DNA of 52,949 nt from a virus (Duplodnaviria; Caudoviricetes): positions 1 to 52,949 of the IMG/VR virus record IMGVR_UViG_3300031841_001392. One strand, 5' to 3'. Under the pieces are notes generated by a model, which ran no database searches, was not told the origin of the DNA, and saw only the letters and a program-made list of their open reading frames with translations. The position numbers were made by a program, and so were the translations under genes. This document shows positions 7,296 through 41,300 of this stretch, piece after piece; position 1 is the first letter of the stretch; each line of letters begins with the position of its first letter.

Positions 7296-7802
7296 TTACT
7301 GATCAGCAAATGCAGGTGCAGTTGCGCCCGTAACAGTGCCGAAGATCTGATAATTGGTTGTGTTCAAACCAATAATCGTTACATCAAAGCCAGCAGGTAC
7401 GTTTAACTGAATGCTGCTATTTGAGTTGCCATCAGAAAAAACCGCACTAACTTCGTTGTCAGTATCAAGGAAAGTAACACCACCAATGTAAAAATTAGTG
7501 TTTCCGGGGGTAACGATAAGCGCATCAGTTGCGTCAGCGGCACCGCCTGCGTAAACAAACCTAAACACAGATCCAGCGATAGGCGCTGGCAAGGTGTAGG
7601 TGTTGTCTTGTCCGCCATCTGGAACCAGCAGTATTCGTCCGCTGTGAGTGGCGTTGGTTAGAGTTACATTGCTATCGGCAAGGCTAACGGGGCCATCACC
7701 GATAGTTGCAACTTCAGTAACAGCACCAGAGGTGCTGTCTTTGCTTACAGTTTTGAAGGTGCTTTCAGAACGAACTGCACCCGTGAAAGTCGTAGTACCC
7801 AT
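7296..7802 (-). CDS. Capsid decoration / fibre-like structural protein
   Basis: MGTTTFTGAVRS N-terminus, beta-rich TYTLPA-type domain; first gene after the MCP terminator. Confidence 0.6.
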   Translation of the reverse strand: MGTTTFTGAVRSESTFKTVSKDSTSGAVTEVATIGDGPVSLADSNVTLTNATHSGRILLVPDGGQDNTYTLPAPIAGSVFRFVYAGGAADATDALIVTPGNTNFYIGGVTFLDTDNEVSAVFSDGNSNSSIQLNVPAGFDVTIIGLNTTNYQIFGTVTGATAPAFADQ

Positions 7803-7856
7803 TGTAGTCTCCTGTCTGGGTTAGTCCAAAATGTTCCACATGGAACAATCGGTCAG

Positions 7857-7892
7857 GAAAAGAACAAGGGCCACCAATTGGCAGCCCTGTTC
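7857..7892 (-). terminator. Intrinsic terminator after the major capsid gene
   Basis: Minus strand GAACAGGGC-TGCCAATTGGTG-GCCCTTGTTC followed by TTTT. Confidence 0.6.
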
Positions 7893-7905: not shown

Positions 7906-8814
7906 TTAGCTAGATCCGGGCGATCCGTAAATTCCCAACGGATCTGATACGCCGAATGAGTATCGTTCACGCGCTTTATAGCGCACGTTACCCGTATCGA
8001 AGTCACCATCCATAGACGTTTCTAGCGCAGTACGCTCAAACATCTTCATACCGTTAGGTATGTCAGTGATGATGAAGAACGCATTGCTGTCAGTCAAATA
8101 GTGATTAACAGCGTAACCGCCGGGGATTGCACCCATATTGCGGATAGCGTTCAGGTCGTTATCAGCCGTGCCGACACGCTGAGTGGTCTCCAGAAGACGA
8201 TCTGCCGTAAACATCAGTGCAGGCGGTACAACCAAGCTACGAGGACGGGCTGCGATTAACAGTCCACGCTCATCTGTGAAGGCTGCAATCTCAATGATTG
8301 CTTGCTCCAGTGAGGTCTCGTTAAGGTCAGCACCAGTAGATGGACGGTTGGAATTGGTTCCACCGTTTACTAATGGGTGCGAAGCGTTGAACAACGTAAC
8401 ACCGTCTCCAGATTGGAAGCTGGTGAAGCCATTGTTAAGCGGATTCGCTGCTTTAACCTGCTTGGTGTAGGCCATAGCCCGTGCCAAAGCTTTCGTGTAG
8501 CGAGCCGAAAGAGAATCGTAGAGATTATCTTCCATCGCTTCCTCGGTGATGGCGAAGCCCATCGCTATCGTCTCGTGATTATAGCGAGCCGTGTAGCTTT
8601 CTTGAGCCGAATCATAAGAGATTGCAGCGCCTTCAGCCTTAACGGGAGCAGCACCAAAGCCGCTCAGTTTCACTTCTTCCTCAAAAGAACGATCAGAACT
8701 CTCAGTCTCATAAATGAGAGTGTGTTCATCTTCGTATTTTTCGTACTCCAAACCAAACAGAGCATTAAGCCCCGGCAGGAGTTCTTTAAGCATTTGCGCT
8801 CTTGAAATTGCCAT
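7906..8814 (-). CDS. Major capsid protein (HK97 fold, Mu gpT-like family)
   Basis: MAISRAQMLKELLPGLNALFGLEY...EEEVKLSGFG...FDTGNVRYKARERYSFGVSDPLGIYGSPG; 302 aa; follows scaffold. Confidence 0.9.
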   Translation of the reverse strand: MAISRAQMLKELLPGLNALFGLEYEKYEDEHTLIYETESSDRSFEEEVKLSGFGAAPVKAEGAAISYDSAQESYTARYNHETIAMGFAITEEAMEDNLYDSLSARYTKALARAMAYTKQVKAANPLNNGFTSFQSGDGVTLFNASHPLVNGGTNSNRPSTGADLNETSLEQAIIEIAAFTDERGLLIAARPRSLVVPPALMFTADRLLETTQRVGTADNDLNAIRNMGAIPGGYAVNHYLTDSNAFFIITDIPNGMKMFERTALETSMDGDFDTGNVRYKARERYSFGVSDPLGIYGSPGSS

Positions 8815-17950: not shown

Positions 17951-18166
17951 ACAAAGCACTTTATACTGCATACCAACTATTTACTGCTTATTTGCTTGTC
18001 AATACTTGTATTGCACACTGTTACCTGCTATTCGCGTGCGCGTTCCTCTTATCCCGAATTCATCCCCCTGCTTACCGTGTGGCGAGCCAATATCAAAAGG
18101 GCTAGTAATAAATCCCCGCACCACTCGTTGTATCTGCAAGCTTAATTATTTATTGCTTACAGGGTA

Positions 18167-18196
18167 TTGCGTACTGTTTTTATATGTGTGTAAAAT
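18167..18196 (+). promoter_or_regulatory. Sigma70-type early promoter
   Basis: TTGCGT-18 nt-TAAAAT with AT-rich upstream DNA, directly before the structured leader. Confidence 0.5.
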
Positions 18197-18202
18197 CCAC
18201 TC

Positions 18203-18528
18203 AAGCCCACGGGGGAGGCTTTCCCAATCCCCGCCAAGCCCCTCACGGGGTGCCTTGAGAGACAGGCTTAAATGTGAACCAAGTCTGGTAGGCCTACCGC
18301 CTACGCGACAGGGGTGCGTTATGAAACGCGCTGCGGGTCATAGAGGCCCAGCCCCTCCGGTAAGAGTCCGGCGCACCTACGGCGTTAAGCGATACACAAG
18401 TTCCCCGACAGGCATACAAATGCCGCTTGCGGTTCGGGCTATTGGCTGAGGTTTACCCCCTCAGCTACCGCAGAGCTTCGGCTCACCAATGACCACTCAC
18501 CGAGTGCTTATTGTTGATTCGATCAATT
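18203..18528 (+). ncRNA. Structured leader RNA of the early transcript, family unknown
   Basis: Dense hairpins, e.g. GCTGAGG/CCTCAGC 18445-18465 inside TGCGGT/ACCGCA, GAGC-TTCG-GCTC 18473-18484; no credible ORF. Confidence 0.5.
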
Positions 18529-18541
18529 TGGAGAAAGTGTG

Positions 18542-18688
18542 ATGACTACTTCAGAACGTAAGGCAGTGCTGCGGTTCAACCGCCGCCGTCTTTTCCTTAA
18601 CCGAATGATCATGCGAAAGCGTGCATTCATTTCATCAATCCGCAGGGCTTTGCAATCGCAGGGCAGTGCATCAATCGGGAGTCTGTAA
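18542..18688 (+). CDS. Unannotated 48-aa Arg-rich peptide (MTTSERKAVLRFNRRRLFLNRMIMRKRAFISSIRRALQ...)
   Basis: GGAG RBS; TAATG overlap with the next ORF. Confidence 0.6.
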   Translation: MTTSERKAVLRFNRRRLFLNRMIMRKRAFISSIRRALQSQGSASIGSL

Positions 18689-18888
18689 TGACAACAACCT
18701 TTACCATTTCGAGAATGCCTGTCGGCAGCGGGTTCCAAGTGACCCAACAAATTGGTGATCGCAGACCAGTGATCATCGCCCACTCACGCAGTGCTGATGA
18801 CGCTCAGAGCTTTGCTTGGCAAAGATTGTCTGACGCGACTGACCGTGGGCGTGAGGCTTTCATAACCATCGACATGCGAGGGTCTTAA
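18688..18888 (+). CDS. Small early protein (66 aa)
   Basis: GGGAG RBS; coupled to the upstream ORF. Confidence 0.65.
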   Translation: MTTTFTISRMPVGSGFQVTQQIGDRRPVIIAHSRSADDAQSFAWQRLSDATDRGREAFITIDMRGS

Positions 18889-18890
18889 AC

Positions 18891-19058
18891 ATGGAAGAAC
18901 GTGTTGATCTTGAGCGGGGGCGCGTGTCGTTCCTAGACCTTGCCACTGGGCAGGTTGAATACACTGGCAACGTGCATGCTGTTTCAGTATGCGTCGTTCC
19001 TAACTTTGACCGCTTCGAGGATTTCGAGGCTTGGGTTGACGATCTACTTTCCAACTGA
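18891..19058 (+). CDS. Unannotated 55-aa acidic early protein (MEERVDLERG...AWVDDLLSN)
   Basis: GAGG RBS; TGA stop lies inside the CTGATGA core of hammerhead 1. Confidence 0.6.
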   Translation: MEERVDLERGRVSFLDLATGQVEYTGNVHAVSVCVVPNFDRFEDFEAWVDDLLSN

Positions 19059-19116
19059 TGAGTGCTGGATGGTAACCAGCCGAAACCGCGCAGGAGGCGC
19101 GGTCTTGGAAAACCAA
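19048..19116 (+). ncRNA. Type I hammerhead ribozyme, copy 1
   Basis: Stem I TTTCCAA/TTGGAAA; CTGATGA 19055-61; stem II GCTGG/CCAGC; GAAA 19082-85; stem III CCGCGC/GCGCGG; GTC cleavage triplet ending at 19104. Confidence 0.92.
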
Positions 19117-19130
19117 TCGGGAGTTTGTAA

Positions 19131-19247
19131 ATGACAGACCAACAAATCATCAGCCTGTTTGATTCTTCAAACATCACGCTGCGGGAGCTGGCAGCAATTA
19201 GTGGGCGCTCAATCGCTCAACTAAAAACCTTGCTGATGGGGGCTTAA
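19131..19247 (+). CDS. Unannotated 38-aa HTH-like peptide (MTDQQIISLFDSSNITLRELAAISGRSIAQLKTLLMGA)
   Basis: GGGAG RBS; TLRELAAISGRSIAQL fits a helix-turn-helix pattern; lies between the two ribozymes. Confidence 0.65.
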   Translation: MTDQQIISLFDSSNITLRELAAISGRSIAQLKTLLMGA

Positions 19248-19300
19248 ACAATGCTTAAGTTTCAAAGCTGGGGCGCTGGTGAGCGCATACGCTTCTAACA

Positions 19301-19366
19301 TTCCAACTGACGAGGCTGGGTGGTTCTCAGCCGAAACCGCGCAGGAGGGCGGTCTTGGAAAACCAA
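19301..19366 (+). ncRNA. Type I hammerhead ribozyme, copy 2
   Basis: Stem I TTCCAA/TTGGAA; CTGACGA 19307-13; stem II GGCTGGG/CTCAGCC; GAAA 19333-36; stem III CCGC/GCGG; GTC ending at 19354; loop II TGGTT complementary to 3' AACCA. Confidence 0.92.
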
Positions 19367-19390
19367 TACAACAACTTGGAGTGACATACT

Positions 19391-20563
19391 ATGTCCATTA
19401 ACGCATCAAAGGTCAGCCCTTCGCAGGCCTCAGAAATGCTGCTGGCACACGCCATCAGTCAACTATCTGGCGGCAAGCGCCACAAGCCCGTGTATCTCTG
19501 GGGCACCTACGGCGTTGGCAAATCATCCATCGTCAAACAATTGATCACCAAGCTTAGCGCCCACTTTGATAAGCCTGTCGGCTTGCTAGATGTTCGCCTG
19601 TCACAGTTTGACGCAGTCGATACTCGCGGCATCCCGTACATTCGTGACCAGCGCGATGCGCTCGATACGGTGGGTAATGACGAGATTGCTGGCATGAGTG
19701 ACGAGGTAAGACGCGCTGCCTATCAGCTATTGTCGGCTGGGCCATCGAAGACTACCGAGTGGTCTACGCCATCATGGCTGCCCAATGTGGCGCGTGACGG
19801 CGAGTTCGGCATCCTGTTCTTGGATGAGATACAGCTTGCATGCCAGTCGGTCAAAAATGCTGGCTACCAGTTGCTTAATGAGTTCCGCTTGGGCGACTAC
19901 ATCTTGCCTGCTGGCTGGTTTGTCATTGCCGCATCCAACCGTCCCAATGACGGCGCTGGTGTGTCTGGGCGTATGGATGCTGCTGTGAGCACCCGCTTTA
20001 AGTATCACTTAGATGTTATGCCATCCGCTGCTGAGACCACCGATTACTTCCAAGATATTGGGGTTCGCCCAGAGGTAATCGCGTTCCTGAAGTTTCGCGG
20101 TGAGGCTGTCGGTGATCAGGCCGGACTCATTCATGAGTTCCCTAATGGCGGCACCGCAAAGGACAAGGTTGCCATCGCTACCCCGCGAACATGGGAATCT
20201 GTCAGCGACATCCTTGACGATGGTATGGCGGCTGATCTGGAGCACATCGCCATTGAGGGCGCTATCGGCGCTGGCGCTGCTGGCGAGTTTGTCGCCTTTC
20301 TCCGCACCATGCGTAACCTGCCAGACATCAACTTGTTTCTGTCAGATCCGCACAACGTGCCACTGCCCAATGAGATCACCACTCAGTATGCAGTGACCGC
20401 TGCGCTGGCTGCGCGGGTGACCGCCGACAACCTTGGCAATGGCGTGACCGTTGTGTCCCGCATCAACAACGAACTGCTGGAGGTGTTCTGGATACTGGCA
20501 ACGCGCCGTGACCCAGACCTTAAGGCTTCACCTGAGTATGTCGCCCACAAGGCAACGTACTAA
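19391..20563 (+). CDS. MoxR/CbbQ-like AAA+ ATPase
   Basis: GTYGVGKS Walker A, ILFLDEI Walker B, IAASN sensor 1, STRF, ATPRTW. Confidence 0.9.
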   Translation: MSINASKVSPSQASEMLLAHAISQLSGGKRHKPVYLWGTYGVGKSSIVKQLITKLSAHFDKPVGLLDVRLSQFDAVDTRGIPYIRDQRDALDTVGNDEIAGMSDEVRRAAYQLLSAGPSKTTEWSTPSWLPNVARDGEFGILFLDEIQLACQSVKNAGYQLLNEFRLGDYILPAGWFVIAASNRPNDGAGVSGRMDAAVSTRFKYHLDVMPSAAETTDYFQDIGVRPEVIAFLKFRGEAVGDQAGLIHEFPNGGTAKDKVAIATPRTWESVSDILDDGMAADLEHIAIEGAIGAGAAGEFVAFLRTMRNLPDINLFLSDPHNVPLPNEITTQYAVTAALAARVTADNLGNGVTVVSRINNELLEVFWILATRRDPDLKASPEYVAHKATY

Positions 20564-20615
20564 ACCCAACAGGGGCTTCGGCCCCTCCACCTTATTTATT
20601 TTGGAGTAAATACCT

Positions 20616-21491
20616 ATGGACAAGATCCAGAACAACGCAATGCTGATCGCCGCGACGATCAAGAAATTCTCAAACAGCCGCAAAGACACCAGCATATCTG
20701 CTGAGGTTGCCGCGACTAAGAACGCCAACCCCAAGGTCATTACCGTGACCAAGAAACTGCTCGACGCACCCGCCGTTAAGGCACTCAACCGTATCGCTGG
20801 GCAGCTTCGCAACTCAGTGCTCAACCCCCTGACCATGCCTTGGGAAGACGGTGTGCGCCTGATCACCGTTGACCAGATCGAAACATTCGAGGCTGAGTGG
20901 GACAAGAAAGTAGACCGCGCTGAAGAGCTAAAGCGCGAGGTCATTACCGAGTGGCCCAACATACTCAAACGTGCCAAGAAAGACCTTGGTGATTCTTTCG
21001 ATATCTCAGAGCTACCCAGTGCTGAGTTTGTCGCTGGCAGTTACCAATTCAGCTACATACTACGCGCCATGCCCGACTCCGGTGATATCAGGGTCAACCT
21101 GCCTGCCGACAAGATCGCCAAGATCAAGGCTCAGGCCGAGTCCGATATCAACAAGCGCGTCGAGTCTGCTGCTGAGTCTGTGCATGAGCGCGTGATCGAC
21201 ACCTTGCAGTCTCTGGTTGACGGCCTAGAGCGGCACGGTAGCAAGCCTGCTGGTGCCAAACGTGCAAGCAAGTTTGCAGATACTACTGTCGAGAATATCG
21301 AGAAGCTTGCTCAGGTTTTGCCTTCACTCAACATTACCGGCGACCCCAAGCTTACGCAGGCAAGCAACGCTATTCTGTCTCAGCTTAACGGCCTAGATCC
21401 TCAGCGGCTGCGCGACTCTTCGAGTGAGCGTCAGGCTGTTGCCAACAAGGCCAAGTCGATTGTCGATAACCTCACTGGCCTTTGGGATTAA
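20616..21491 (+). CDS. DUF3150-like helical protein
   Basis: KKLLD...TMPWEDGVRLI...LPSLNITGDPKL; sits between the AAA and vWA genes as is typical for this family. Confidence 0.6.
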   Translation: MDKIQNNAMLIAATIKKFSNSRKDTSISAEVAATKNANPKVITVTKKLLDAPAVKALNRIAGQLRNSVLNPLTMPWEDGVRLITVDQIETFEAEWDKKVDRAEELKREVITEWPNILKRAKKDLGDSFDISELPSAEFVAGSYQFSYILRAMPDSGDIRVNLPADKIAKIKAQAESDINKRVESAAESVHERVIDTLQSLVDGLERHGSKPAGAKRASKFADTTVENIEKLAQVLPSLNITGDPKLTQASNAILSQLNGLDPQRLRDSSSERQAVANKAKSIVDNLTGLWD

Positions 21492-21504
21492 CGGAGAAAT
21501 ACTT

Positions 21505-22836
21505 ATGTCAGCGTTAAACATTATGTTGAAAGCTCGACGGCGCATGCTGCGCGAGTTTCCATACTTTGGCTTCCGACTGCATCAGCTACTGCTGGTGCCG
21601 TCAACCAAGACCTCTACGATGGCAACCGATGGAAAGGCTATCTACTTCAACGAGAAGTGGGTGCCTGAGCAGTACGCCATCCACGGTTACAAGTTCATCA
21701 TGACCGTACTGGCTCATGAGATCATGCACGTTGATGGGTTCCATCACCTGCGTAAGGGCAGCCGTGACCACAAGCTTTGGAATGAGGCCGCCGACTACGC
21801 CATCAACTACGCGCTAGTGCGTGAGGGCTTTGAGGTTCACGATGGCCTGTACAGCACCGACTACATTGGCAAGTCTGCCGAACAGGTGTACACCATCCTC
21901 GAAAGCCAGCGCAGCACTGAGGCCGACAAGCCCAGCACTGGCAACGGTGGCGCTGACGATGATGACTCAGGCGATGGCGCTGCCGATGGGGATGCCCCTG
22001 ATCAAGGCGACAACGGCTCTGAGGGCGGCCCTGACGGCGATACTGGCGATGCTGGCGACACTGGCACCTCTGGTGACGGCGACGGCCCTGCTGACCCTGA
22101 CGCGCCTTGGGGCGAAGTCTGGGAAGGCACCAACAATGACGGCACCCCGATGTCTGCTGACCAGAAAGCTTCTGTGCAGCGCGAGATCACCAGCCAGATA
22201 TTCGAAGCTGCCAAGGCTCAGGATAAAATCAAGGGCAAAGGCGAGGGCCGAGGCGCTGCTGTTGACCAGATCATCAGTGGCGTATCCGGTGACCCAGTCC
22301 CTTGGTTCGAGCATCTCAAGGATGCGTTCTCCGACTATGTTCTGACTGAGCACACCTTTGCTCGACCAGAGCGCCGACTGCTCTCGCAGGGCATGATCTT
22401 GCCGACGCAGGAGCGTGAGCCTAACGGCGAGCTTGTTGTGTCGGTAGACACCAGCGGATCAATAGGCCAAGACGAGCTAGACGCTATTGCAGGCCATGTG
22501 CAGGACATCATTGATGAGATCAACCCGATCAAGACTGTGGTGATCTACTGCCACCATGTCCTCTGCGGCGTTGAGGAGTTTGATCGGCATGAGGATCTAA
22601 CGCTCAGGATTCCTGAGACTGGCGGCACGGCATTCAACCCACCGTTCAACTATGTTGCGCGTGAGGGCTTGGAGCCATGCGCGATGATCTACTTCACCGA
22701 TGGCTGGGGTGACGTTGGGCCAGACGGCTGGCACGACTTCAGTGAGCCTGACTATCCGGTGATCTGGGCAACGACAGACCGTGAGCCTTTCTTCGCTGGG
22801 TGCGAACCCTTCGGTGAGGTGATACGGGTTACATAA
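21505..22836 (+). CDS. Metallopeptidase + vWA domain protein (DUF2201-like)
   Basis: TMATDG, LAHEIMH (HExxH), WNEAADYAIN, acidic linker, DTSGSI MIDAS, GGTAF, YFTDG. Start set at ATG 21505 (GGAG RBS). Confidence 0.88.
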   Translation: MSALNIMLKARRRMLREFPYFGFRLHQLLLVPSTKTSTMATDGKAIYFNEKWVPEQYAIHGYKFIMTVLAHEIMHVDGFHHLRKGSRDHKLWNEAADYAINYALVREGFEVHDGLYSTDYIGKSAEQVYTILESQRSTEADKPSTGNGGADDDDSGDGAADGDAPDQGDNGSEGGPDGDTGDAGDTGTSGDGDGPADPDAPWGEVWEGTNNDGTPMSADQKASVQREITSQIFEAAKAQDKIKGKGEGRGAAVDQIISGVSGDPVPWFEHLKDAFSDYVLTEHTFARPERRLLSQGMILPTQEREPNGELVVSVDTSGSIGQDELDAIAGHVQDIIDEINPIKTVVIYCHHVLCGVEEFDRHEDLTLRIPETGGTAFNPPFNYVAREGLEPCAMIYFTDGWGDVGPDGWHDFSEPDYPVIWATTDREPFFAGCEPFGEVIRVT

Positions 22837-32080: not shown

Positions 32081-32300
32081 GGAAAGTGTTGAAGAGTTCC
32101 TTGCCCGTGGTGGCAAGATACAGGAAGTGCCTTTTGGCGAAATTACCATCAAAGATCCAAAGCTCGGCAACCATGGCCCAAGCAAAGTAACTGCTCAGGC
32201 GCACATAAGAGCTAGTCAAAAGCGTGAGCAGAAGAAAGACAAAGCCAAATCCAAGGTTAAGGTGTTTGGGTTCAACAGGCCCAGCCCTAAAAAAGATTAG
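32073..32300 (+). CDS. Small phage protein (VEEFLARGGKIQEVPFG)
   Basis: GAGGAG RBS; converges on and overlaps the end of the giant gene. Confidence 0.6.
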   Translation: MSKESVEEFLARGGKIQEVPFGEITIKDPKLGNHGPSKVTAQAHIRASQKREQKKDKAKSKVKVFGFNRPSPKKD

Positions 32301-35300
32301 ATATCCTGTTAGCTATAGTCTCTGTTGCCGTGGGCAGTTCTATATATCTTTCTAGCTGCGGGACGATGCTCAGATAGTACTGCTCTTGAGTATTGATAAA
32401 TCTCATCTGCTCCTGCTTCTGATCTGCCGTCAGGTCAGACTTCAACAACGTTCTACGCTGCTTCCTGAGATCTGCAAGCGCACTGGCTGTAGGCTGTAGC
32501 TGCTTCCTCAGACCTATGAATTGCTTTTTATTTACCAAGAAACTCTCAAGCTCATCAAACCTACCTTGGTCTTGCAGAAGCTTGGCTGCGTTCTCGGTAC
32601 GCTTAATGTAGTCCCACATCTCGTAGAAGTCTTCTTTGTTACCGCCACCAAACTCACTGGCAAAGAATCTTCGTATGATCGGATACTGAGAGACATCGGT
32701 TCCAGCAAGCACCGCTCTGTTGTCTCCTTGAAGAAAGCTGTCTCTCAATCCGTAATCAGCCATGCCCAAGATATAAGATCCAATCGTGCCGCCATAACCT
32801 TTCATCAAATGATCTAGTTTGATCGGGCTGATGCCCAAGACCTTCGCCATATTCTTGGCAACCTCCGTTGTAGAGGCAAGCTCTTGAAGCTCTGGTGGCA
32901 ATGATGAATCTATAAATACGGGAGTTACAGGCCTGCCTGTATAGAGGTCGTAGTTCATGTACGCCTCCATAATTGGAGTTACTGCCTGTGGAGGCTGAAC
33001 ACCAAGCGTTCCAAACACTGCTCGGCCTATTGATTGCTGCGCCTCTCTGGCGGTGGTGCCTTCGTTGTAAGAGTCAATGATCCGCTCAGGCAGCGTCTTG
33101 AAAATAAGGCCAACCTCAAACGGGATTGGAATTCTAACCGGCACACCAGACGGTGTTGGTATAAGCCAGTAGTTGTCTTTTATTTCTTCGGTCTGCTCTT
33201 TGTACTGCTCATCATCACTAACCATTGTGTAGTAAATGGCTGTGCTCGCAGCTATCAAAGATCCTCTGGCGATAAAGCTCATGGCTGCCTGAGAGCGTGA
33301 CAAGTCTCTGTTGGCAGAGCTTTTGCCTGTACCGGCCCGTGCAAGGACATCTAAGCCTTGTATCCTAGCGTTCAAGAAAGGAATCGTTGCTGTAACCAAA
33401 CGCATAACAGGGCTGCTGCCACGGCGACCAAAGTTCAACACTTCCATCGCTTGATAGCTGGCTTCTGCCTCATTACCTGTACGGGCTAATACATCGTTGT
33501 AAACAGCGTTTCTAGTAGCAGCGTCTGAGCGAGTTGTCGCTTGACCAAGAAGATCCCAACCGCCGATAAAGAATTTACTAAGAAGCCCTCTTTGATCTAC
33601 ATTCTTGTTTCTTTTTTGAAGTATCTTTCCTGCGTACTCGCCAATGTTTTCTGGGTCATTCTTGTAGTCATAACCGCCTACAACACCTGTCCTCTCAAGC
33701 TTCTCCATTCCTTCAGCGTAACCAGCAATGGTATCGGCTATTGGCACAAAGCTAGACCCAGAAGTGACGAATGCAGACAGCGAGTCACGCAGCATGTTTG
33801 CAATAACAAACCCCGGCTCCCGTGTAACCATCTCTCGCAAAAAACGGGATGGGAAACCCAGTATCTTAGAAACTTCACGCTCTACACCACCAGCAGGCTC
33901 AACAGTCAACGACTCATATATTAACGGGTCATCAACAATGAACTTACGTCTATTGCCGTTGACTTTGAAGGTGACAACAGCCTCGCCTGTAGTGTTCTGT
34001 CCCGGCTTGACCTCTCTTGCTAGGCCAATGTTTCTCATATCCCTGACAATGCGTTGCTGGGCAACATTCTTCATGCCCATGCTAATCGCTGCGTTCAGGT
34101 TCATGGATATTGCTTCCAAGAGCGGCACGTTAACTTCTTTTTCGCTGCCTTTGATTGCCTTTAGGTCTGCGCTTGCAGTCAGGCCGCCAAAGATGTTCGG
34201 CGCGTTTGGAGTGTCGGCACCTTCTACTTGACGATAGAAAGGCACATAGTCTGACTGGTCTTGCCACATCTCTGCGGTCTCTGCATCAACAACACCCGTA
34301 TCTTTGAGAAACTGAACGGTGTAGCCGTTGTAGTCTTGCCAAGCGTCATACCAGTCCTTGATTATTGAATTGCCATTCTCATCCAAGAAAGACTCTGCGG
34401 TTGCAATGTTAGCTGCATGATCCGCCGGGGTTCCCGGTACAGCTATGCCTTTTGCTCGCAAACGCTCGGATCTCTTAGCTATTGAGTAGGCCTGAGCCAT
34501 TTGCTCAAGAGACCCATGCTCCTTGGTGTACAGCATGGACATCAAATCTATGAGGCCTCTAATTTTTTTGGTTTCGCCCCGACTGTTGGTGTGGTTGAAA
34601 TCCGCTATCTTGGTCATACCGCCTGTGTACACAGGGACACCGTACTGAAGAGCGGCTGCGGTTATCGCATTAGATCTGTCAGCCATCAGAGCGGCAGCCA
34701 AAGACGATGAGTCAGCAAGCAAGTTGCCAAGCATGCCTTGGTAGTTTTCTAGCTGGGCATACCTATTGACCGCTGCCTGTTTAGCCTTGGTCAACCACTT
34801 GGCTATCGGCCCTTGATCTAAGACGTTGAGATAGGTCTGTCCGGGGGTATTCGTGGGTAGGTCTGCAACAACATTGTCTATTGCAGCCTGAGCAGCGGGG
34901 TTTATCTCTGGCGCGTTAGACCTAGAGAATGCAGGCATTTCACTATCTGAAAGCTCTTGGCCTTTGTCTGGGTCGGCTGCTACAGCTTGTGCATATCGGT
35001 CTGCGCCGGGATTAAACCGTGGCACCGTGCCTGCGGGACGATTCTCTGCTATTTGTAGATTGTCAGCTACAACACGGTCAACTTCGCTTTGACCTATGAC
35101 CTCTCTGCGCTTGTATTTATCAAGCAGGTTGAATGGAAGCCCTACGTCTTCAGTCTGTACCTCTCTGGCAGCATCGCCTCTTCCTCTGCGCCTAGAGGCT
35201 GAGTCGGGTCTCGGTCTGGGTACGCCGCCATCAGATAGTTTTCTCTCGTAAGTGGCTGCTTGGTCGCCTTCAGGTATCCCTCCGTCAGATCGTTCCCAGT

Positions 35301-38300
35301 CGGGCGGCTTGATTTGTCCTGCATGTTCATAGATGGCCTCTCTAGCCTGATCCAGCGTTATTTGCTTCTTATTATACTGCTTCCATATATTGTCTACAAC
35401 TTCCACATTACTGTTTTGAGACTTGTACTCTGGTCGGAAAAGGCCTCTGACCGCTTCCCATGTAATGGACTGCATCTCTCTAGGTAAAACACCGCGCTCC
35501 TTAGCAGCACGGCGGTAGGCCTCCTCGTAGATTGAGTACACGCCGTTTAGGCCCGTAATACTTGACGATGAACCCTTCGTTCCAAAATTGTGAGAAACCT
35601 CAAATGCACTGCCGCCAAGAGGCTTAAGAAGTCCTGCCGCAACAGCATGGGTGTCTATGGTTACATAGCCAAGATCCGAGTCTGGATCGAATATGTTGTT
35701 GTAAAAGTTTCTGACTTTGTTTGCCGAACCAAGCGATGCAGATATGGTGTCAATGTCAGTTTCTCTTAGGGCTTTAATTGACTTGGCTATCTCAGTTAGA
35801 GACCCCCAAGCCACCTTAGAGTTGCTACCGTCAGAATTCTTTGCGTAGTCGAGAAGTCTGCCGTCAGGGGATACAATCCTGTAGCTAGGGTCGTTATAGG
35901 TCTGGTCAAAAGTCCTGATCCACATAGCGCCTAGCTGCTCACCTTGCCCCGGCTCATTGAATTTATCCAGTACTTGATCAAGGGAGCTAGAGCCTATCAG
36001 ATTAAGCATCTCACGATTTCTGGCTTGACCCTTGGCGCTTATGCCATCATGAAAGAATATTTCTTCGGCGCGAGCTTTCATCTCAGGAGTAAAAGGCTGC
36101 CCTGCGTGATCAAAGAACGTATCAATAGTTCTCTCTGCGAGCGAGGCGTTTTGATACCAGTCCTTTTGCGGAGACAGGTTGGCTGCAACAGCAGCAGCTT
36201 GTTGCATGGTTAAGTTGTGACGTTCTGCAAATCTACGGACTAAAGCGTTTGCGCCTTTGTACCAAACCTTCGAGTTATTACGGGTATCAGCCGGAACCCT
36301 GTCATATATATTGAGCAGATTATTCTTAACAAGCTCAACAAATGCCTCTGCTTTTTGTTTATCTGATCTTAGGTCTTTTGATTTCTGCAGTATCGGATAG
36401 AGGTTAGCGTCTTTGATAAGCTCCATGTTCTTGCCAAAGACCTTGCCGTCAGCAAGAAAGGTTTCGTAGTCATTGACTAGTAAGTCTTCAAGAGGGTCTT
36501 CTTTTGATCTGGCGGCTGTGGGGTATCGGGTACTTACATTACCCTCTATACCGCCCTGTTCAGCGGCTCGCCTAGAGAACATGGGTGATTCTTCAAAGCC
36601 GTCCCTGCCTTCACGGGATGTCCACTCAGGCATCAAGCCCATCTTCTGGTCAGCAAAGACGGTGTCTAGTACACCAGCTCCTTGGTTTTGCTCGCCATAT
36701 GGGCCGTAGTTCAGCCAGCTATTTTGCCCCCTAGTCTCAGACGTAAGTGCCTGTAACGCTGGGCCAGTGAATAGTTTGGCGTGTGCCTGCCATGCATTTT
36801 CCTCACCGCGAGCGCGGAATCCAGCACCTTCTATGCCGTGACCAAATGCGTCATGTACAGCCCTGAATAAGTCGTTGTTGGTGACTATTTGCTCTCGACC
36901 TAGCTGATCTTTCCATCGCAACCCTGTGTCACGCAACATAACCCTGTTTGGATCGCCTATATCGTTATAGAAGTCATCTAAGGTGCCGTAACCGTCATAA
37001 GTGCCATAGACGGACATGCGCTTGTTGCTGCGCAAGTCCCGCATTGCGTTGTACGGGTTGCCGTCATAAGGGTCTGTGTCTGAATCATAGAAATCAAACT
37101 CAAAACCTTCGTCAATCAAGGCATCGTATTGGTTGCGTGTTTGCCTAGCCAGATCCTCATAAGCATCCCTAACATTAGGATCAGTGGGATCATCAGCCAT
37201 CTCCTCATAAGCCTGCGCTATCCGAGTGGCTCTCTCTGGGTCTACCCTTACATACTCCGATTGTCTGGCAAGCGGGATGCCATAGGTCTCTGCATATCGC
37301 TCTGCTGCGGCATTGATTGCTGGGTCTGGCCCCGTGGCCCCTGCCCTGATCGGCGCTCCTTCGAGCGGCGTTCTGCTTGCACCCTGATCTTCTGTCGGCG
37401 CAACGCTTCGTGCCTGATCGCGTCCTCTTCCGTCTCTTCCGCGTTGGGGTCGTACATTATCACCTCCAAGGTTTGATATGTTTCTGGCAACGATGCCTTT
37501 AGTGCCTGACGCATCAATAGGTTGTGCTAACTGCTCAGGATCAATCATTTCGTAAAGAAACTTTGATTGCCCCGACTTGATATCAAACTTGCTGCCTTCA
37601 GGTACAAGATGTTGGTCTCTTGAGTCGGCAAACTCTACTTCGCCAACCTCAATAGGCTCTCCTACAGTGGCGTAACCAACAAGTTTTGCAGGCCCAGAAC
37701 CTGTCTCCACTATGCCAATACGCTTACCCACATAGGGGCGCAGCGAGTCTTTGTCGCGTGTCTCGTATTTTTTCTGACCGCTGACAATTAACTCAGCATA
37801 GTTAGTATCTCCATCAGTTCTGACGTTGATACCCATCTCAGCTTCTGTTGGCGCTCTGCGAGAAAACAGCGTTTCAAACTGCTCGCCACTTGGCAGAACA
37901 TTTTTTGTTGCGTTCTTGGCTAATACTAACGGGCCAACCTGTATTACTTCTTCAGCAAAGGTTACTGGCTCGCCGGTCTTTCTGTCGTAGAAGTATGAGT
38001 GTCTTCTTGGATCAAAACCAACCTGAACCCAGTCTGGAGAGTTAATGAATTCCTCTGCAAGTGATGCTGTTTGCTCCGGGTCTCTGTTTACAAAGTCTCC
38101 CATGATTTGGGCAAACGGAAACTTGTTTTTTCCCTCCATAACGGAACGAGCGTCTTCTTGAAGGTTTTTAGGGTCTCTTCCCGCTCTTTCTCTAAGCATG
38201 GTGAAATCAGCATTTTTGATTGATGCTGTAGCCATGTGAGATATCGATTTGCCTTTCTGGTCGTGAATCGTTGGCACCCAAGTGCCAAAGTTTTTGTATG

Positions 38301-41300
38301 CGTTGATATCTAATCTAAGACCAACGCGAGACCCATCAGGAACCTCTGCGTTTATTTTGTCTTTCTGGCTTTGAACAGCTAAAGCCTCAAACATCTCTTC
38401 TGTAGTGGCAGGCTCTGGAACAAAGTCATAAGGCTCAATTGTTCCCAGAACAACAGAATCATATTGCTGTCTGGTAAATTCCCCTGACTGCAATTTTGAG
38501 TAAGCATCGGCAACTTCAGGCCTAACCTCTGTTTGGGGAGCGCCTACAGCCCTTCTGCTAAAATCGGGAACAGACTGACCCTGCATCGCTGCGTCACGTT
38601 CTGCCTCTTCGCCGGTGGTGATGACTGTGCCGGGGGGTGGTTTGGCTAGGGTTCTAGATGCGGCCTTCTCTGTTTGAGCAAAGGTTCTTATCTCACCTCT
38701 CTGTCTACCACCTATGGTGCCTGAGCCTATGCCGCCGATAACCTCGCTGAAGGTATTGAACTGCTCGCCTCTAAGGGCTGAGACCATGTTCCTAAAGAAC
38801 CTAGCTATGCGCTCTACAAGGGATCTTGGCTTGCCCTGTAAAAGTTTACTGTCTTCTCTTGCTCGTCTGACTAGCTCGGCAACAGATTCTTCTACCTGAT
38901 CTACTGGGCTTAAGTCATTGTAGTTGTTTTGCGCCCACTTGAGGAATGTCTGTGGGTTGCCATCCCTGTCTTTGGTGGGGTGTATCTTTTTGCTTGCCGC
39001 CCTTGAGAGAAGATTCCATTCTTTGTTGGTGAACAGATCCAGCTTACGCATGGCATGGATCATTTCGTGATCTAGAAGAGCCAGCAATTCTGCCTCTACC
39101 TGAGCATCTGTCAGGGTTTTACCCTGCATAGCTTTGTCTATTGACAAGAAAATAGTATTTATTCTCGGGTCGTAGTAAGCCTCTGCTCTGTCCTCTGGGT
39201 CTGCCTGATCAGACCGAACAAGCTGGTACTTGGCCTCTCTAGCTAAAGCGGCCTCACCACCAATCACATCTGCATCTATATCGCCGCCCTGTCTAGGCCT
39301 TATGCCGTAAACAAGATTGCCCAGAGGATCTTTGACCGCTGTCCTGAGCGCATAATCTAGGCTTAGGCCAACGTCCTTCAAACCAAACCCTGTCATCACC
39401 TTCTTGATTGCAGAGCGTAATCGGTCAACGTCTACCGATGGCGCAGGCAGAGCGAGTGTTTCTTGTTGCTGCTCCACCACAGTCTCAACCGGAGCAACCG
39501 GCTTCACACCCTGCTTGGCAATGTCCTTACGCAACTCCTGCATAGACTCAGCGCCACTCTTGGTCGCTATATTTATACCTGTAGCGTCAGCTAGGGCTAA
39601 CTCGCCTGCATTCGGATTTTCTTGCAGGGTTTGGACAGCAGCACGGAACTGCGCCCCTGTGTACTTGGGCAGCTTGAATGTGGGCAGCTTGGTAGGCTTG
39701 TCAAATCGTGGCAGTGATCTAAGACGTTGATATAGCAGCCTAGCCTCAGCAACAGACAGATCGTTTATCGACTTGATAGTCTTCTTGCCAAGAATCCTAG
39801 ACGCAAGGTACTTGACCTCTGGAGACCCCACCTTGGAGGTTATGTTCTTTGCTTCCAACAGCGACTGCATCTCTTGGAAGTTGCCATCGACGTTACGCAT
39901 AACACCTTTTTCGACGGCAGCCTTGCCAGTGGCGTTGTTTAGTTGGTTGGCATAGACCCTAGCATCAGCCTCGGTCTTGAACTTGACCAGCTTAGGCGGC
40001 TTCTTCTTGGGGTTTGCCTTGATCTCAGCGTCTTTCTCTAGGACGGTCAGAGGCCTGCCCTGAAGCACCTCGCCTGCGCTGCTCCTGATAATAGGGTTGC
40101 CAGCTTTACTAAGATCAGCGTTGTACGTTTCTGTCTCTGGAAGACCATTTACCCGTGTATCGGTAAGGTTATATAGCTGGTCTTCTTTCAGTACGCTTCT
40201 GACTTCTTCAATGGTGAAGTTGTTTGTTACTGGCAGACCCTTACGCAGACGCTTCGCGTTGATGCGCTGAGAGGCAGTCATCTTGGACGGCCCTACACGG
40301 TTTTCTACCAGTGTTTTGACATCAGCAACCTCATCAAAACCACGGTCTTGTGTGGTCTCTGCTGCGCTATCTACGGCAACAGATGTGTAGGTGTTGGAGT
40401 CTGGGTGATTTACAGCGAAGTTGTAGGCTTGAAGTGTAGAAGCTTGATCTGTGTCATACGCTTCTGGAGATGTGGAGATAACAGCGTCACCGGCAGAAAA
40501 GACGTTGTCGTTGATGATTTCGTCATTAAGAAACCCAGCAAGAGCGAAGGCATCTTCTGAGTTGTTGAGTGGTATGCCGAACTGCTGACCAGAACTGTCT
40601 TGTACAGTAAAGACGGGAACGCCAGTCTCATCTAGCTGCGTGGTGTCTCCTAAAGCACCGCCAAACTCTTGTGGCAGGTTAACGGTAAATGAGTTGTCTG
40701 CTGACGGGAAACTATCACCCATTGTCTGGCGTATCTGTTGGGCATAGGCAAGCATCGGCTGTTTCGGGTATCGCCTTTGAATGCCTGCGGTAGGCTCTGC
40801 GACAGTGGTGATCTGCAAACCTGTCTGCTGAGGCACACCATTTACAGAGGTAATCACCTCGCCGCCACCGGGAACCTCAACAAAGGTTGTGACCTGCTCT
40901 GTAGGCTTACCCTTGTTTCTTATTCTGGTCTTTTCTTCTGCTTGAAAGGTCTGTCCTGATGCATCAGATATGTTAACTATTCTTGCGGGAGTCTTTAACT
41001 TGGTTGTGAGCGCCCTGCCTGTAGGTGGAGCTATCTGAGCGGGATCTACCTCTGCTCCAGCAGCCTGCCTACGGGCCTCAGCGGCAGCCTTTACGTCTAG
41101 ATTAGACTGAGCGTCTATACGAGCTTGTTCTGCAAGGTCTTTGGGTAGGTTTGCCTGTCTTTGATTCTGGGCATCTTCTAGGTCTTCTCTTTTCTTTCTC
41201 TCTGCTTCTTCTGAGGACTTGAAGGCATCTTTGTTGCGCCTTCCAGCTACAGCGTTCAAGACTAAGTCAGCGCCTGCGCCGATAGCACCGCCTACGGTGA

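Follow-up and report, generated by a model that had tools for sequence, protein, structure and literature searches.

Tandem hammerhead ribozyme motifs beside a MoxR-like ATPase operon and its shuffled small genes in a marine phage

The Caudoviricetes virus record IMGVR_UViG_3300031841_001392, analysed over its whole 52,949 bp (the window, estimated to be 95% complete), carries two copies of an element of about 70 nucleotides (nt) on the + strand, 250–252 nt apart and among + strand genes. We confirm that both copies, HH1 (19048–19116) and HH2 (19300–19366), are genuine hammerhead motifs. The first precedes a 38-amino-acid (38-aa) gene, the second an operon encoding a MoxR-like AAA ATPase and a VWA-like protein. 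Both are very likely active ribozymes that cut a + strand polycistronic mRNA and may act as intercistronic insulation, the second ribozyme having been brought in on a gene cassette. A preliminary description of this DNA had described the pair as complete type I hammerheads sharing one polarity, and this is borne out, with both copies on the strand of the surrounding genes.

Architecture and covariation of the hammerhead pair

HH1 comprises a three-stem ribozyme and a 3′ tail that pairs with loop II, with a predicted cut after C19104. Stem I is formed by 19049–19054 (UUCCAA) and 19105–19110 (UUGGAA), extended by the pair U19048–A19111, and leads into the core CUGAUGA (19055–19061). Stem II, built from G19062–C19081, a bulged U19063 and 19064–19068/19076–19080, is capped by loop II AUGGUAA (19069–19075) and followed by the GAA (19082–19084). 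Stem III (19085–19091/19097–19103) opens with the A15.1–U16.1 pair (A19085–U19103), and C17 is C19104, the last base of the triplet GUC. HH2 follows the same plan, again including a tail: stem I 19301–19306/19355–19360, core CUGACGA at 19307–19313, stem II 19314–19320/19326–19332, loop II UGGUU at 19321–19325, GAA at 19333–19335 and stem III 19336–19340/19349–19353, opening with A15.1–U16.1 (A19336–U19353). C17 is C19354, in a second GUC triplet, and the cut is predicted directly after it.

The hammerhead core (C3 U4 G5 A6 N7 G8 A9 with G12 A13 A14) is complete in both copies, both satisfy the N-U-H requirement of the cleavage triplet with GUC, and both close stem II with G10.1–C11.1 (G19062–C19081 in HH1, G19314–C19332 in HH2). 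Stem I is 6–7 base pairs (bp) long and open, the 5′ and 3′ ends exiting there, which defines type I. Folded alone by minimum free energy (MFE), each copy gives a three-way junction. Stem II differs between the copies yet pairs in both, as the preliminary description had it, and the complementarity it had noticed between loop II and a 3′ AACCA also holds: UGGU(U) can pair with (A)ACCA at 19112–19115 in HH1 and 19361–19365 in HH2, a segment that begins about 0–2 bases 3′ of stem I, and the contact covaries in other phages. The cut positions proposed there, after 19104 and 19354 and 26–36 nt ahead of start codons, agree with our coordinates, the distances being 26 nt from HH1 to ATG 19131 and 36 nt from HH2 to ATG 19391. 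The piece between the cuts, 19105–19354, is 250 nt long, and the 19 nt around and after both cut sites are identical (repeat D4).

Two further features accompany the pair. The new 5′ end left by either cut, UUGGAAAACCAA (19105–19116 and 19355–19366), forms a 4-bp hairpin (UUGG/CCAA) in the MFE folds of both downstream products. Since the hammerhead of contig L088 keeps the ACCA tail without self-complementarity of the UUGGAAAACCAA type, the pseudoknot, not the 5′-end hairpin, is the conserved reading. Secondly, the loop of stem III is a Shine–Dalgarno-like AGGAG in both copies (19092–19096 in HH1, 19343–19347 in HH2), as it is in L002–L006, the second copy of L007, L008, L155 and L159; variants at the loose ends of run contigs do not have it, and it may reflect mere shared descent.

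The motifs stand out from chance. A descriptor requiring exact cores, at least 5 bp in stem I and at least 4 bp in each of stems II and III, applied to both strands, matched only HH1 and HH2 in the window and nothing in 200 of 200 dinucleotide-preserving shuffles. A model built here (R1), run with filters off, also returned HH1 and HH2 only in the window, the next match having an E-value of 0.15.

The strongest evidence for the predicted fold comes from variants of the same element in close relatives. Stem II there appears as CUGG/CCAG, CUGA/UCAG, CCGA/UCGG and CUAG/CUAG, changes that are compensatory, and stem III as CCGCGC/GCGCGG, CCGUGU/GCGCGG, CCGUG/CACGG and others, all with an unchanged core, stem I and pseudoknot. 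For a wider view, a pattern made of the cores and the CCGC/GCGG start of stem III found matches in at least 117 viral contigs, and 143 distinct hammerheads were parsed from the fetched loci (this and the survey counts below are among the matches listed). We aligned 29 of these that have a long stem II and a candidate pseudoknot, using MAFFT. Paired cells make up 90.4% of this alignment, against 72.2% in shuffles and 30–41% when the partners are slid by 1–3 columns. Changes on both sides are seen in 15 of 21 pairs (6/6 in stem I, 4/6 in stem II and 4/5 in stem III), and the core columns are invariant in all 29 rows, as the search pattern dictates. The third pseudoknot pair (26–73) is CG in 10 rows, UA in 8, GC in 2 and GU in 1 of 29, the 8 unpaired cells being in part one-column register shifts of the MAFFT alignment. 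Elsewhere the UGGU/ACCA pairing is replaced by UGGAUA/UAUCCA, UGAUU/AAUCA or GGC/GCC in other lineages. Judged by this alignment, stems I–III and the loop II/3′-tail pseudoknot covary across the 29 phage examples.

Permutation tests gave a modest signal for the 38 examples with a long stem II (mean helix 3.32 against 2.98, standard deviation 0.11) and a weak one for all 143 (mean 3.03 against 2.76, with 38 helices of at least 4 bp against 30.9, maximum 43). We attribute these modest results to the use of other tertiary contacts by most phage hammerheads.

Tandem hammerheads no more than 1,000 nt apart were present at 27 of the 125 viral loci examined. The distance from cut to next start has a median of 27.5 nt (interquartile range 24–38; 138 downstream ORFs, that is, open reading frames), which makes the geometry at the window typical of its class. 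Downstream genes are heterogeneous: the commonest PHROG covers 5 of 135 ORFs, which include RNA and DNA polymerases and an anti-restriction protein and are mostly unknown small ORFs. Pairs with window-like spacing, 246–253 nt apart, occur in L016, L036, L056 and L057. Longer arrays exist as well, with four same-strand hammerheads in a row, spaced by 380–1,400 nt and each followed by an ORF, in L054 (1658–3524), L098 and L125.

Setting beside the ATPase operon and history of the small genes

The first gene after HH2 (19391–20563, + strand) encodes the MoxR-like AAA ATPase, assigned by Pfam (AAA), by PHROG 1297 (ATPase) and by tblastn matches annotated as MoxR-like ATPase. Its partner in the same + strand block is a protein with DUF2201_N and VWA-like (DUF2201) regions (21424–22836, +), and a 291-aa ORF with no family assignment lies between the two. 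After the predicted HH2 cut the ATPase gene would keep a 36-nt leader (19355–19390, +) that contains GGAG at 19378–19381 and is common to relatives.

In nine of nine contigs with an ATPase at least 73% identical (the window, L002–L008 and L155), the AAA gene is immediately preceded by a hammerhead. The proposal, made beforehand, that a hammerhead sets the 5′ end of the AAA–vWA mRNA fits this conserved position, and the end itself is predicted. Of the eight other contigs, seven carry one hammerhead only, and the eighth, L007, has a tandem arrangement of another kind. Where relatives have a single copy, its 5′ side corresponds to HH1 and its 3′ side to the HH2 leader; it is the orthologue of HH1, and the window therefore carries an extra 250-nt unit; the segment is absent from L002–L006, L008 and L155. 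No sigma-70-like promoter and no U-tract terminator was called at either hammerhead, which places both inside a transcription unit. Two other interpretations of the locus were tried and rejected. The stem III hairpin is not read as a terminator or promoter, given that there is no U-tract and no such site was called at the ribozymes; and the wider survey does not bear out a tie of hammerheads to MoxR ATPases in general, since only 2 of the 135 ORFs downstream of hammerheads, those of the window and L008, both from this lineage, match the ATPase PHROG.

The segment between the predicted cuts (19105–19354, +) is made up of leader, 38-aa gene and gene remnant, followed by the HH2 body. The leader, CAATCGGGAGTTTGTAA with a GGGAG ribosome-binding site (19114–19130, +), duplicates the one at 18672–18688 (repeat family D6). 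It is followed by the 38-aa gene (MTDQQII...LKTLLMGA; 19131–19247, +), which we read as a real conserved small gene and which possibly encodes a minimal helix-turn-helix: 12 synonymous and 3 non-synonymous codon changes separate it from its L007 homologue, a copy in the independent metagenome contig L159 is 96% identical, and the family has 35 representatives at E no greater than 0.001, mostly of 37–60 aa.

A helix-turn-helix had been proposed for this ORF in the preliminary description; the gene holds up as real and conserved, and every match to a helix-turn-helix is below threshold. The ORF itself has no Pfam or PHROG family (best Pfam match DUF7317, E 0.13), families of helix-turn-helix type match 1–3 of 34 family members at E 0.01–0.05, and Atlas matches to such families score 0.80–0.82, below the 0.9 level. 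A match of the family profile in the PDB, to a designed 'CAP repeat', is the sum of five weak repeats. A helix-turn-helix nature is thus weakly indicated. The gene is not ribozyme-specific, because in the 18 viral contigs with the N-terminal motif of the family a hammerhead lies upstream only in L007, the window aside.

Behind the 38-aa gene, what had been listed as a 15-aa ORF of the excised RNA (19251–19298, +) proves to be a remnant of a 128-aa gene, X, reduced by internal deletion: its first 13 and last 2 codons are joined at the microhomology GAGCGCA. L007 carries full-length X, and its positions 1563–1601 equal window 19250–19288 at 100% identity, with the 3′ end also matching. In L159 an intact X start follows the 38-aa gene.

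The order of these parts differs from contig to contig. Most relatives have a single hammerhead. L007 runs X, hammerhead, 38-aa gene, membrane ORF, 55-aa ORF, hammerhead and ATPase, with cuts 537 nt apart; L159 runs 55-aa ORF, hammerhead, 38-aa gene and X, the undeleted form of the window arrangement, in which X is deleted. In a contig of run X4, matched at 90% likeness with sides of 129–184 nt, the 38-aa gene sits behind an ordinary leader, upstream of the 55-aa ORF and with no ribozyme before it. It follows from these four layouts that the small-gene cassettes have been shuffled and that the ribozymes border them. The preliminary description had suggested checking whether relatives swap the gene between the ribozymes; mostly they have no second ribozyme (seven of eight), and L007 offers a different tandem arrangement. 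By these comparisons the 250-nt unit is a patchwork of leader, 38-aa gene and X remnant, and HH2 is a lineage-specific copy that arrived with a gene cassette by recombination.

Several details of the surrounding junctions deserve recording. The conserved leader (GCAGTGCAT)CAATCGGGAGTTTGTAA recurs in front of several small genes that differ from one another (window 18672–18688 and 19114–19130; L002–L008 and L159), and a second junction, GGG(G/T)CTTAAACAATG, stands after these small genes. Contigs 91–96% identical differ at the junctions in the presence and order of a 66-aa gene, the 55-aa ORF, the 38-aa gene, the 128-aa X and a membrane ORF. The 55-aa ORF directly upstream of HH1 (18891–19058, +), which has no Pfam family, also stands upstream of the hammerhead in L004–L008 and L159. 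Its TGA stop (19056–19058) falls inside the HH1 core CUGAUGA, with the last two codons of the ORF in stem I; stop and core overlap in this way in L004–L008 too. A terminating ribosome and the HH1 fold may possibly compete for the same bases.

The phage itself has a G+C content of about 50% and a terminase closest to those of the Pelagibacter phages HTVC023P and HTVC027P (54–57% identical), and no DNA-level relative of 18000–22000 was present among 50,697 deposited phage records. Away from the hammerheads, 7800–7858 on the − strand matches the Mu-gpT-DE RNA (RF03012) at 25.6 bits against a gathering threshold of 49 (E 0.1 for the whole window), directly downstream of a − strand gene (7906–8814) that matches Mu-like_gpT and Phage_capsid_4. 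This is probably a true diverged instance, because a position downstream of a gpT-like gene is what the family name denotes. A 3,283-aa ORF (32287–42138, −), whose only PHROG matches are to families of unknown function in its C-terminal third, is probably a giant virion or ejection protein.

Predicted processing of the transcript and its alternatives

In the mechanism that we favour, each ribozyme would fold during transcription, stabilised by a pseudoknot of 4–5 bp that loop II forms with the bases immediately 3′ of stem I, and would cut itself 3′ of GUC. The HH1 cut would fall 46 nt past the stop of the 55-aa ORF, the HH2 cut 36 nt before the MoxR-like AAA–vWA genes. Hammerhead cleavage leaves a 2′,3′-cyclic phosphate on the upstream product and a 5′-OH on the downstream one. 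By this known chemistry, the upstream piece would carry a 2′,3′-cyclic phosphate and end in the GC-rich stem III hairpin, which may protect the 3′ end of the upstream mRNA. The downstream piece would begin with a 5′-OH and a constant leader of 26 or 36 nt with its own ribosome-binding site (GGGAG or GGAG). The 5′-monophosphate-dependent entry of RNase E does not favour a 5′-OH, so the 5′ end of the ATPase mRNA would be disfavoured for this route of decay. The hammerhead would act in this way as an intercistronic insulator, making turnover and translation of the ATPase operon independent of the variable small genes upstream, and in the window phage the two cuts would set free the 38-aa gene on a 250-nt RNA of its own. 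The sequence comparison establishes the motifs, how they covary, where they are conserved and how the cassette came in; cleavage itself, the chemistry of the ends and the effect on stability or translation are steps that we infer.

A number of observations weigh against this reading. Rfam at gathering thresholds finds no family in the whole window, so that the check with curated hammerhead models suggested in the preliminary description leaves both copies short. In E-value mode HH1 matches Hammerhead_1 (RF00163) at 19.3 bits, with a gathering threshold of 34 (E 0.061 over 501 nt). The best match of HH2 is the RAGATH-1-hammerhead (RF03152), with which its core and stems align, at 30.3 bits and below the threshold of 56.3 (E 0.0039 over 501 nt, E 0.41 over the whole window). 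The low scores arise because the models score the long stems II and III as insertions; no further ribozyme-like match came up when the whole window was scanned by E-value. Membership of HH2 in RAGATH-1 was considered and rejected, the upstream hairpin of that family being matched only with a 22-nt insertion inside the gene remnant. The pairing in the 29-row alignment is in part there by construction, with rows chosen by the analyst and a search pattern that fixed the cores and four stem III pairs. Nor is the hammerhead a constant companion of the operon: 0 of 3 contigs with an ATPase at 43–46% identity have one within 1.5 kb, and model R1 finds one in 0 of 4 deposited phage genomes with the closest terminase, from which it follows that the ATPase operon does not need a hammerhead. 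Finally, the benefit, be it insulation or stability, is one that we only infer.

Regulated cleavage is one alternative. In such a conditional switch, cleavage might for instance be blocked by ribosomes terminating on the 55-aa ORF, with translation or ionic conditions setting the ratio of coupled to uncoupled mRNA. The overlap of the stop at 19056–19058 with the HH1 core, the last two codons encoded by stem I and the recurrence of this arrangement in L004–L008 would suit it, and a salt-tuned hammerhead variant in a halovirus is discussed in the excerpted text of PMC3088659. HH2 and the hammerhead of L002 and L003 lack such an overlap, however, their stops lying 2 to about 20 nt before stem I, the folds contain no alternative structure of note, and there is no ligand-binding element. 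We regard a switch as unlikely.

The preliminary description had raised a circular mRNA. In this reading the 250-nt RNA (19105–19354), which codes for the 38-aa protein, would be closed covalently, through the reverse hammerhead reaction or a host ligase of RtcB type. With identical 19-nt stretches at both cut sites (D4), the 5′ end of the excised RNA could pair over 6 bp with the 5′ strand of HH2 stem I, rebuilding a whole hammerhead that holds the two ends of the RNA together, and in viroids and retrozymes RNA ends of the same chemistry are joined to give circles (PMC6765202, in the part cited). Such compatibility is not general among phage tandem pairs: of 30 distinct pairs no more than 1,000 nt apart, among the matches listed, stems I are cross-compatible in only 11, and in 13 the contiguous cross pairs number fewer than 4. 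In several lineages (L031 and L046/L086/L099/L106) stem I has undergone compensatory change inside each ribozyme at the cost of the cross pairing. Recent recombination alone would account for the identity of the cut sites in the window, the segment is partly gene remnant and it has stops in all three frames, with no endless ORF. Circular or spliced products of prophage clusters were sought and not detected, according to the excerpt of PMC3088659. Of 15 sequencing runs listed, all in the form of contigs, four were compared at 90% likeness (X4 and X5, of RNA; X1, presumed RNA; X8, of unspecified type), and no 19354–19105 junction was listed among them. Contigs do not display RNA ends, and none of the four proved to contain the tandem layout of the window, so this result weighs neither for nor against cleavage or a circle; high depth over the ribozymes came from short contigs common to several strains and was left out of account. 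The idea is unsupported, and we consider a circle distinctly unlikely. Its fullest version is very improbable; here the RNA would close on itself with HH2 stem I and the pseudoknot rebuilt and the ends apposed, and would persist as a circular mRNA for a 38-aa DNA-binding-like peptide. If true, a double-stranded DNA phage would for the first time be seen to make a coding circular RNA through tandem hammerheads.

Least credible is a role at the DNA level only, with the hammerheads persisting as homology patches for cassette recombination and their RNA activity lost or irrelevant: gene content does differ on both sides of the hammerhead between contigs otherwise 91–96% identical, in four layouts (single hammerhead, L007, L159 with the window, and the X4 contig), but the invariant core and the compensatory changes of stems II and III in close relatives show that selection acts on the RNA fold, other junctions of the region use a different conserved leader without a ribozyme, and a DNA-level role is compatible with cleavage and hence no true alternative.

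Relation to known systems

Processing of the transcript by hammerheads, the mechanism put forward in the preliminary description, is the published hypothesis of Perreault et al. (2011, PLoS Comput Biol; PMC3088659, cited here from excerpts of its text), and the present locus is a new example, not a new phenomenon. In that work clustered hammerheads flank prophage or phage genes, as in a triple arrangement around ardA of Agrobacterium tumefaciens, the identities of the flanked genes are not constant, and long phage transcripts are proposed to be processed into operon-length or single-gene mRNAs (PMC3088659). Three tandem prophage arrangements were cleaved in vitro and one in vivo in E. coli; pseudoknots were required for fast cleavage, and about 40% of hammerheads have a pseudoknot between stems I and II (PMC3088659). 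A 2019 review, in the part cited, still lists the purpose of phage hammerheads as undefined (PMC6765202). A literature search on hammerheads, circular RNA and RtcB, judged by titles and abstract starts, gave none on phages; closer examples may be present in the supplements of Perreault et al. (S1–S4).

The window fits the pattern of a clustered pair, with same-strand hammerheads whose predicted cuts are 250 nt apart and which flank one conserved 38-aa gene. As in the clusters of 2011, the copies lie a few hundred nt apart, the small genes are not constant and a processing role is proposed. Unlike them, the window represents a lineage of uncultured marine tailed phage, with a terminase like those of the pelagiphages HTVC023P and HTVC027P; the comparison with relatives has a second ribozyme arriving with a cassette, and the conserved target is a MoxR-like ATPase–vWA operon, all of this known here from sequence. 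The predicted fold shares with the pseudoknot-stabilised hammerheads of that study, as excerpted, a Watson–Crick contact of 4–5 bp between the loop of stem II and the strand leaving stem I, which replaces a loop–loop contact and which covaries. Its type I form, with loop II pairing to the 3′ tail, differs from the pseudoknot examples tested there, which according to the same excerpts are mainly type II.

Tandem hammerheads of one polarity would also, as in retrozymes and viroid-like circular RNAs, release a unit with a 5′-OH and a 2′,3′-cyclic phosphate, ends that a rebuilt ribozyme could bring together. The unit in the window, unlike a retrozyme, is a protein-coding piece of a double-stranded DNA phage operon and has no retroelement repeats, and the cross-compatible ends, 6 bp here, are not conserved among phage tandem pairs.

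Two further comparisons concern the predicted effect of the cuts. In the early genes of T7, RNase III sites between genes give intercistronic cuts and gene-sized mRNAs with defined ends. Unlike these, the window transcript is predicted to be cut by the RNA itself, with no host enzyme and with other end chemistry. That the transcript is an early one, and that the ribozymes stand in for RNase III, are assumptions of the preliminary description. RiboJ is an engineered hammerhead insulator placed upstream of a ribosome-binding site, where it strips off variable upstream RNA and leaves a constant leader; HH1 and HH2 resemble it in being natural hammerheads just upstream of a ribosome-binding site, with a putative insulating effect.

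The function of the many hammerheads in phages has been open since 2011, and this locus provides a clean natural comparison, not the answer. Roughly one in five viral loci retrieved by a single hammerhead pattern, among the matches listed, carry tandem copies a few hundred nt apart. Near-identical phages here have one ribozyme, two, or the same small gene with no ribozyme ahead of it, always beside the same ATPase operon. This natural series of layouts suits testing whether hammerheads insulate an operon from fast-changing cassettes, and whether a single-gene RNA, once excised, meets a particular fate.

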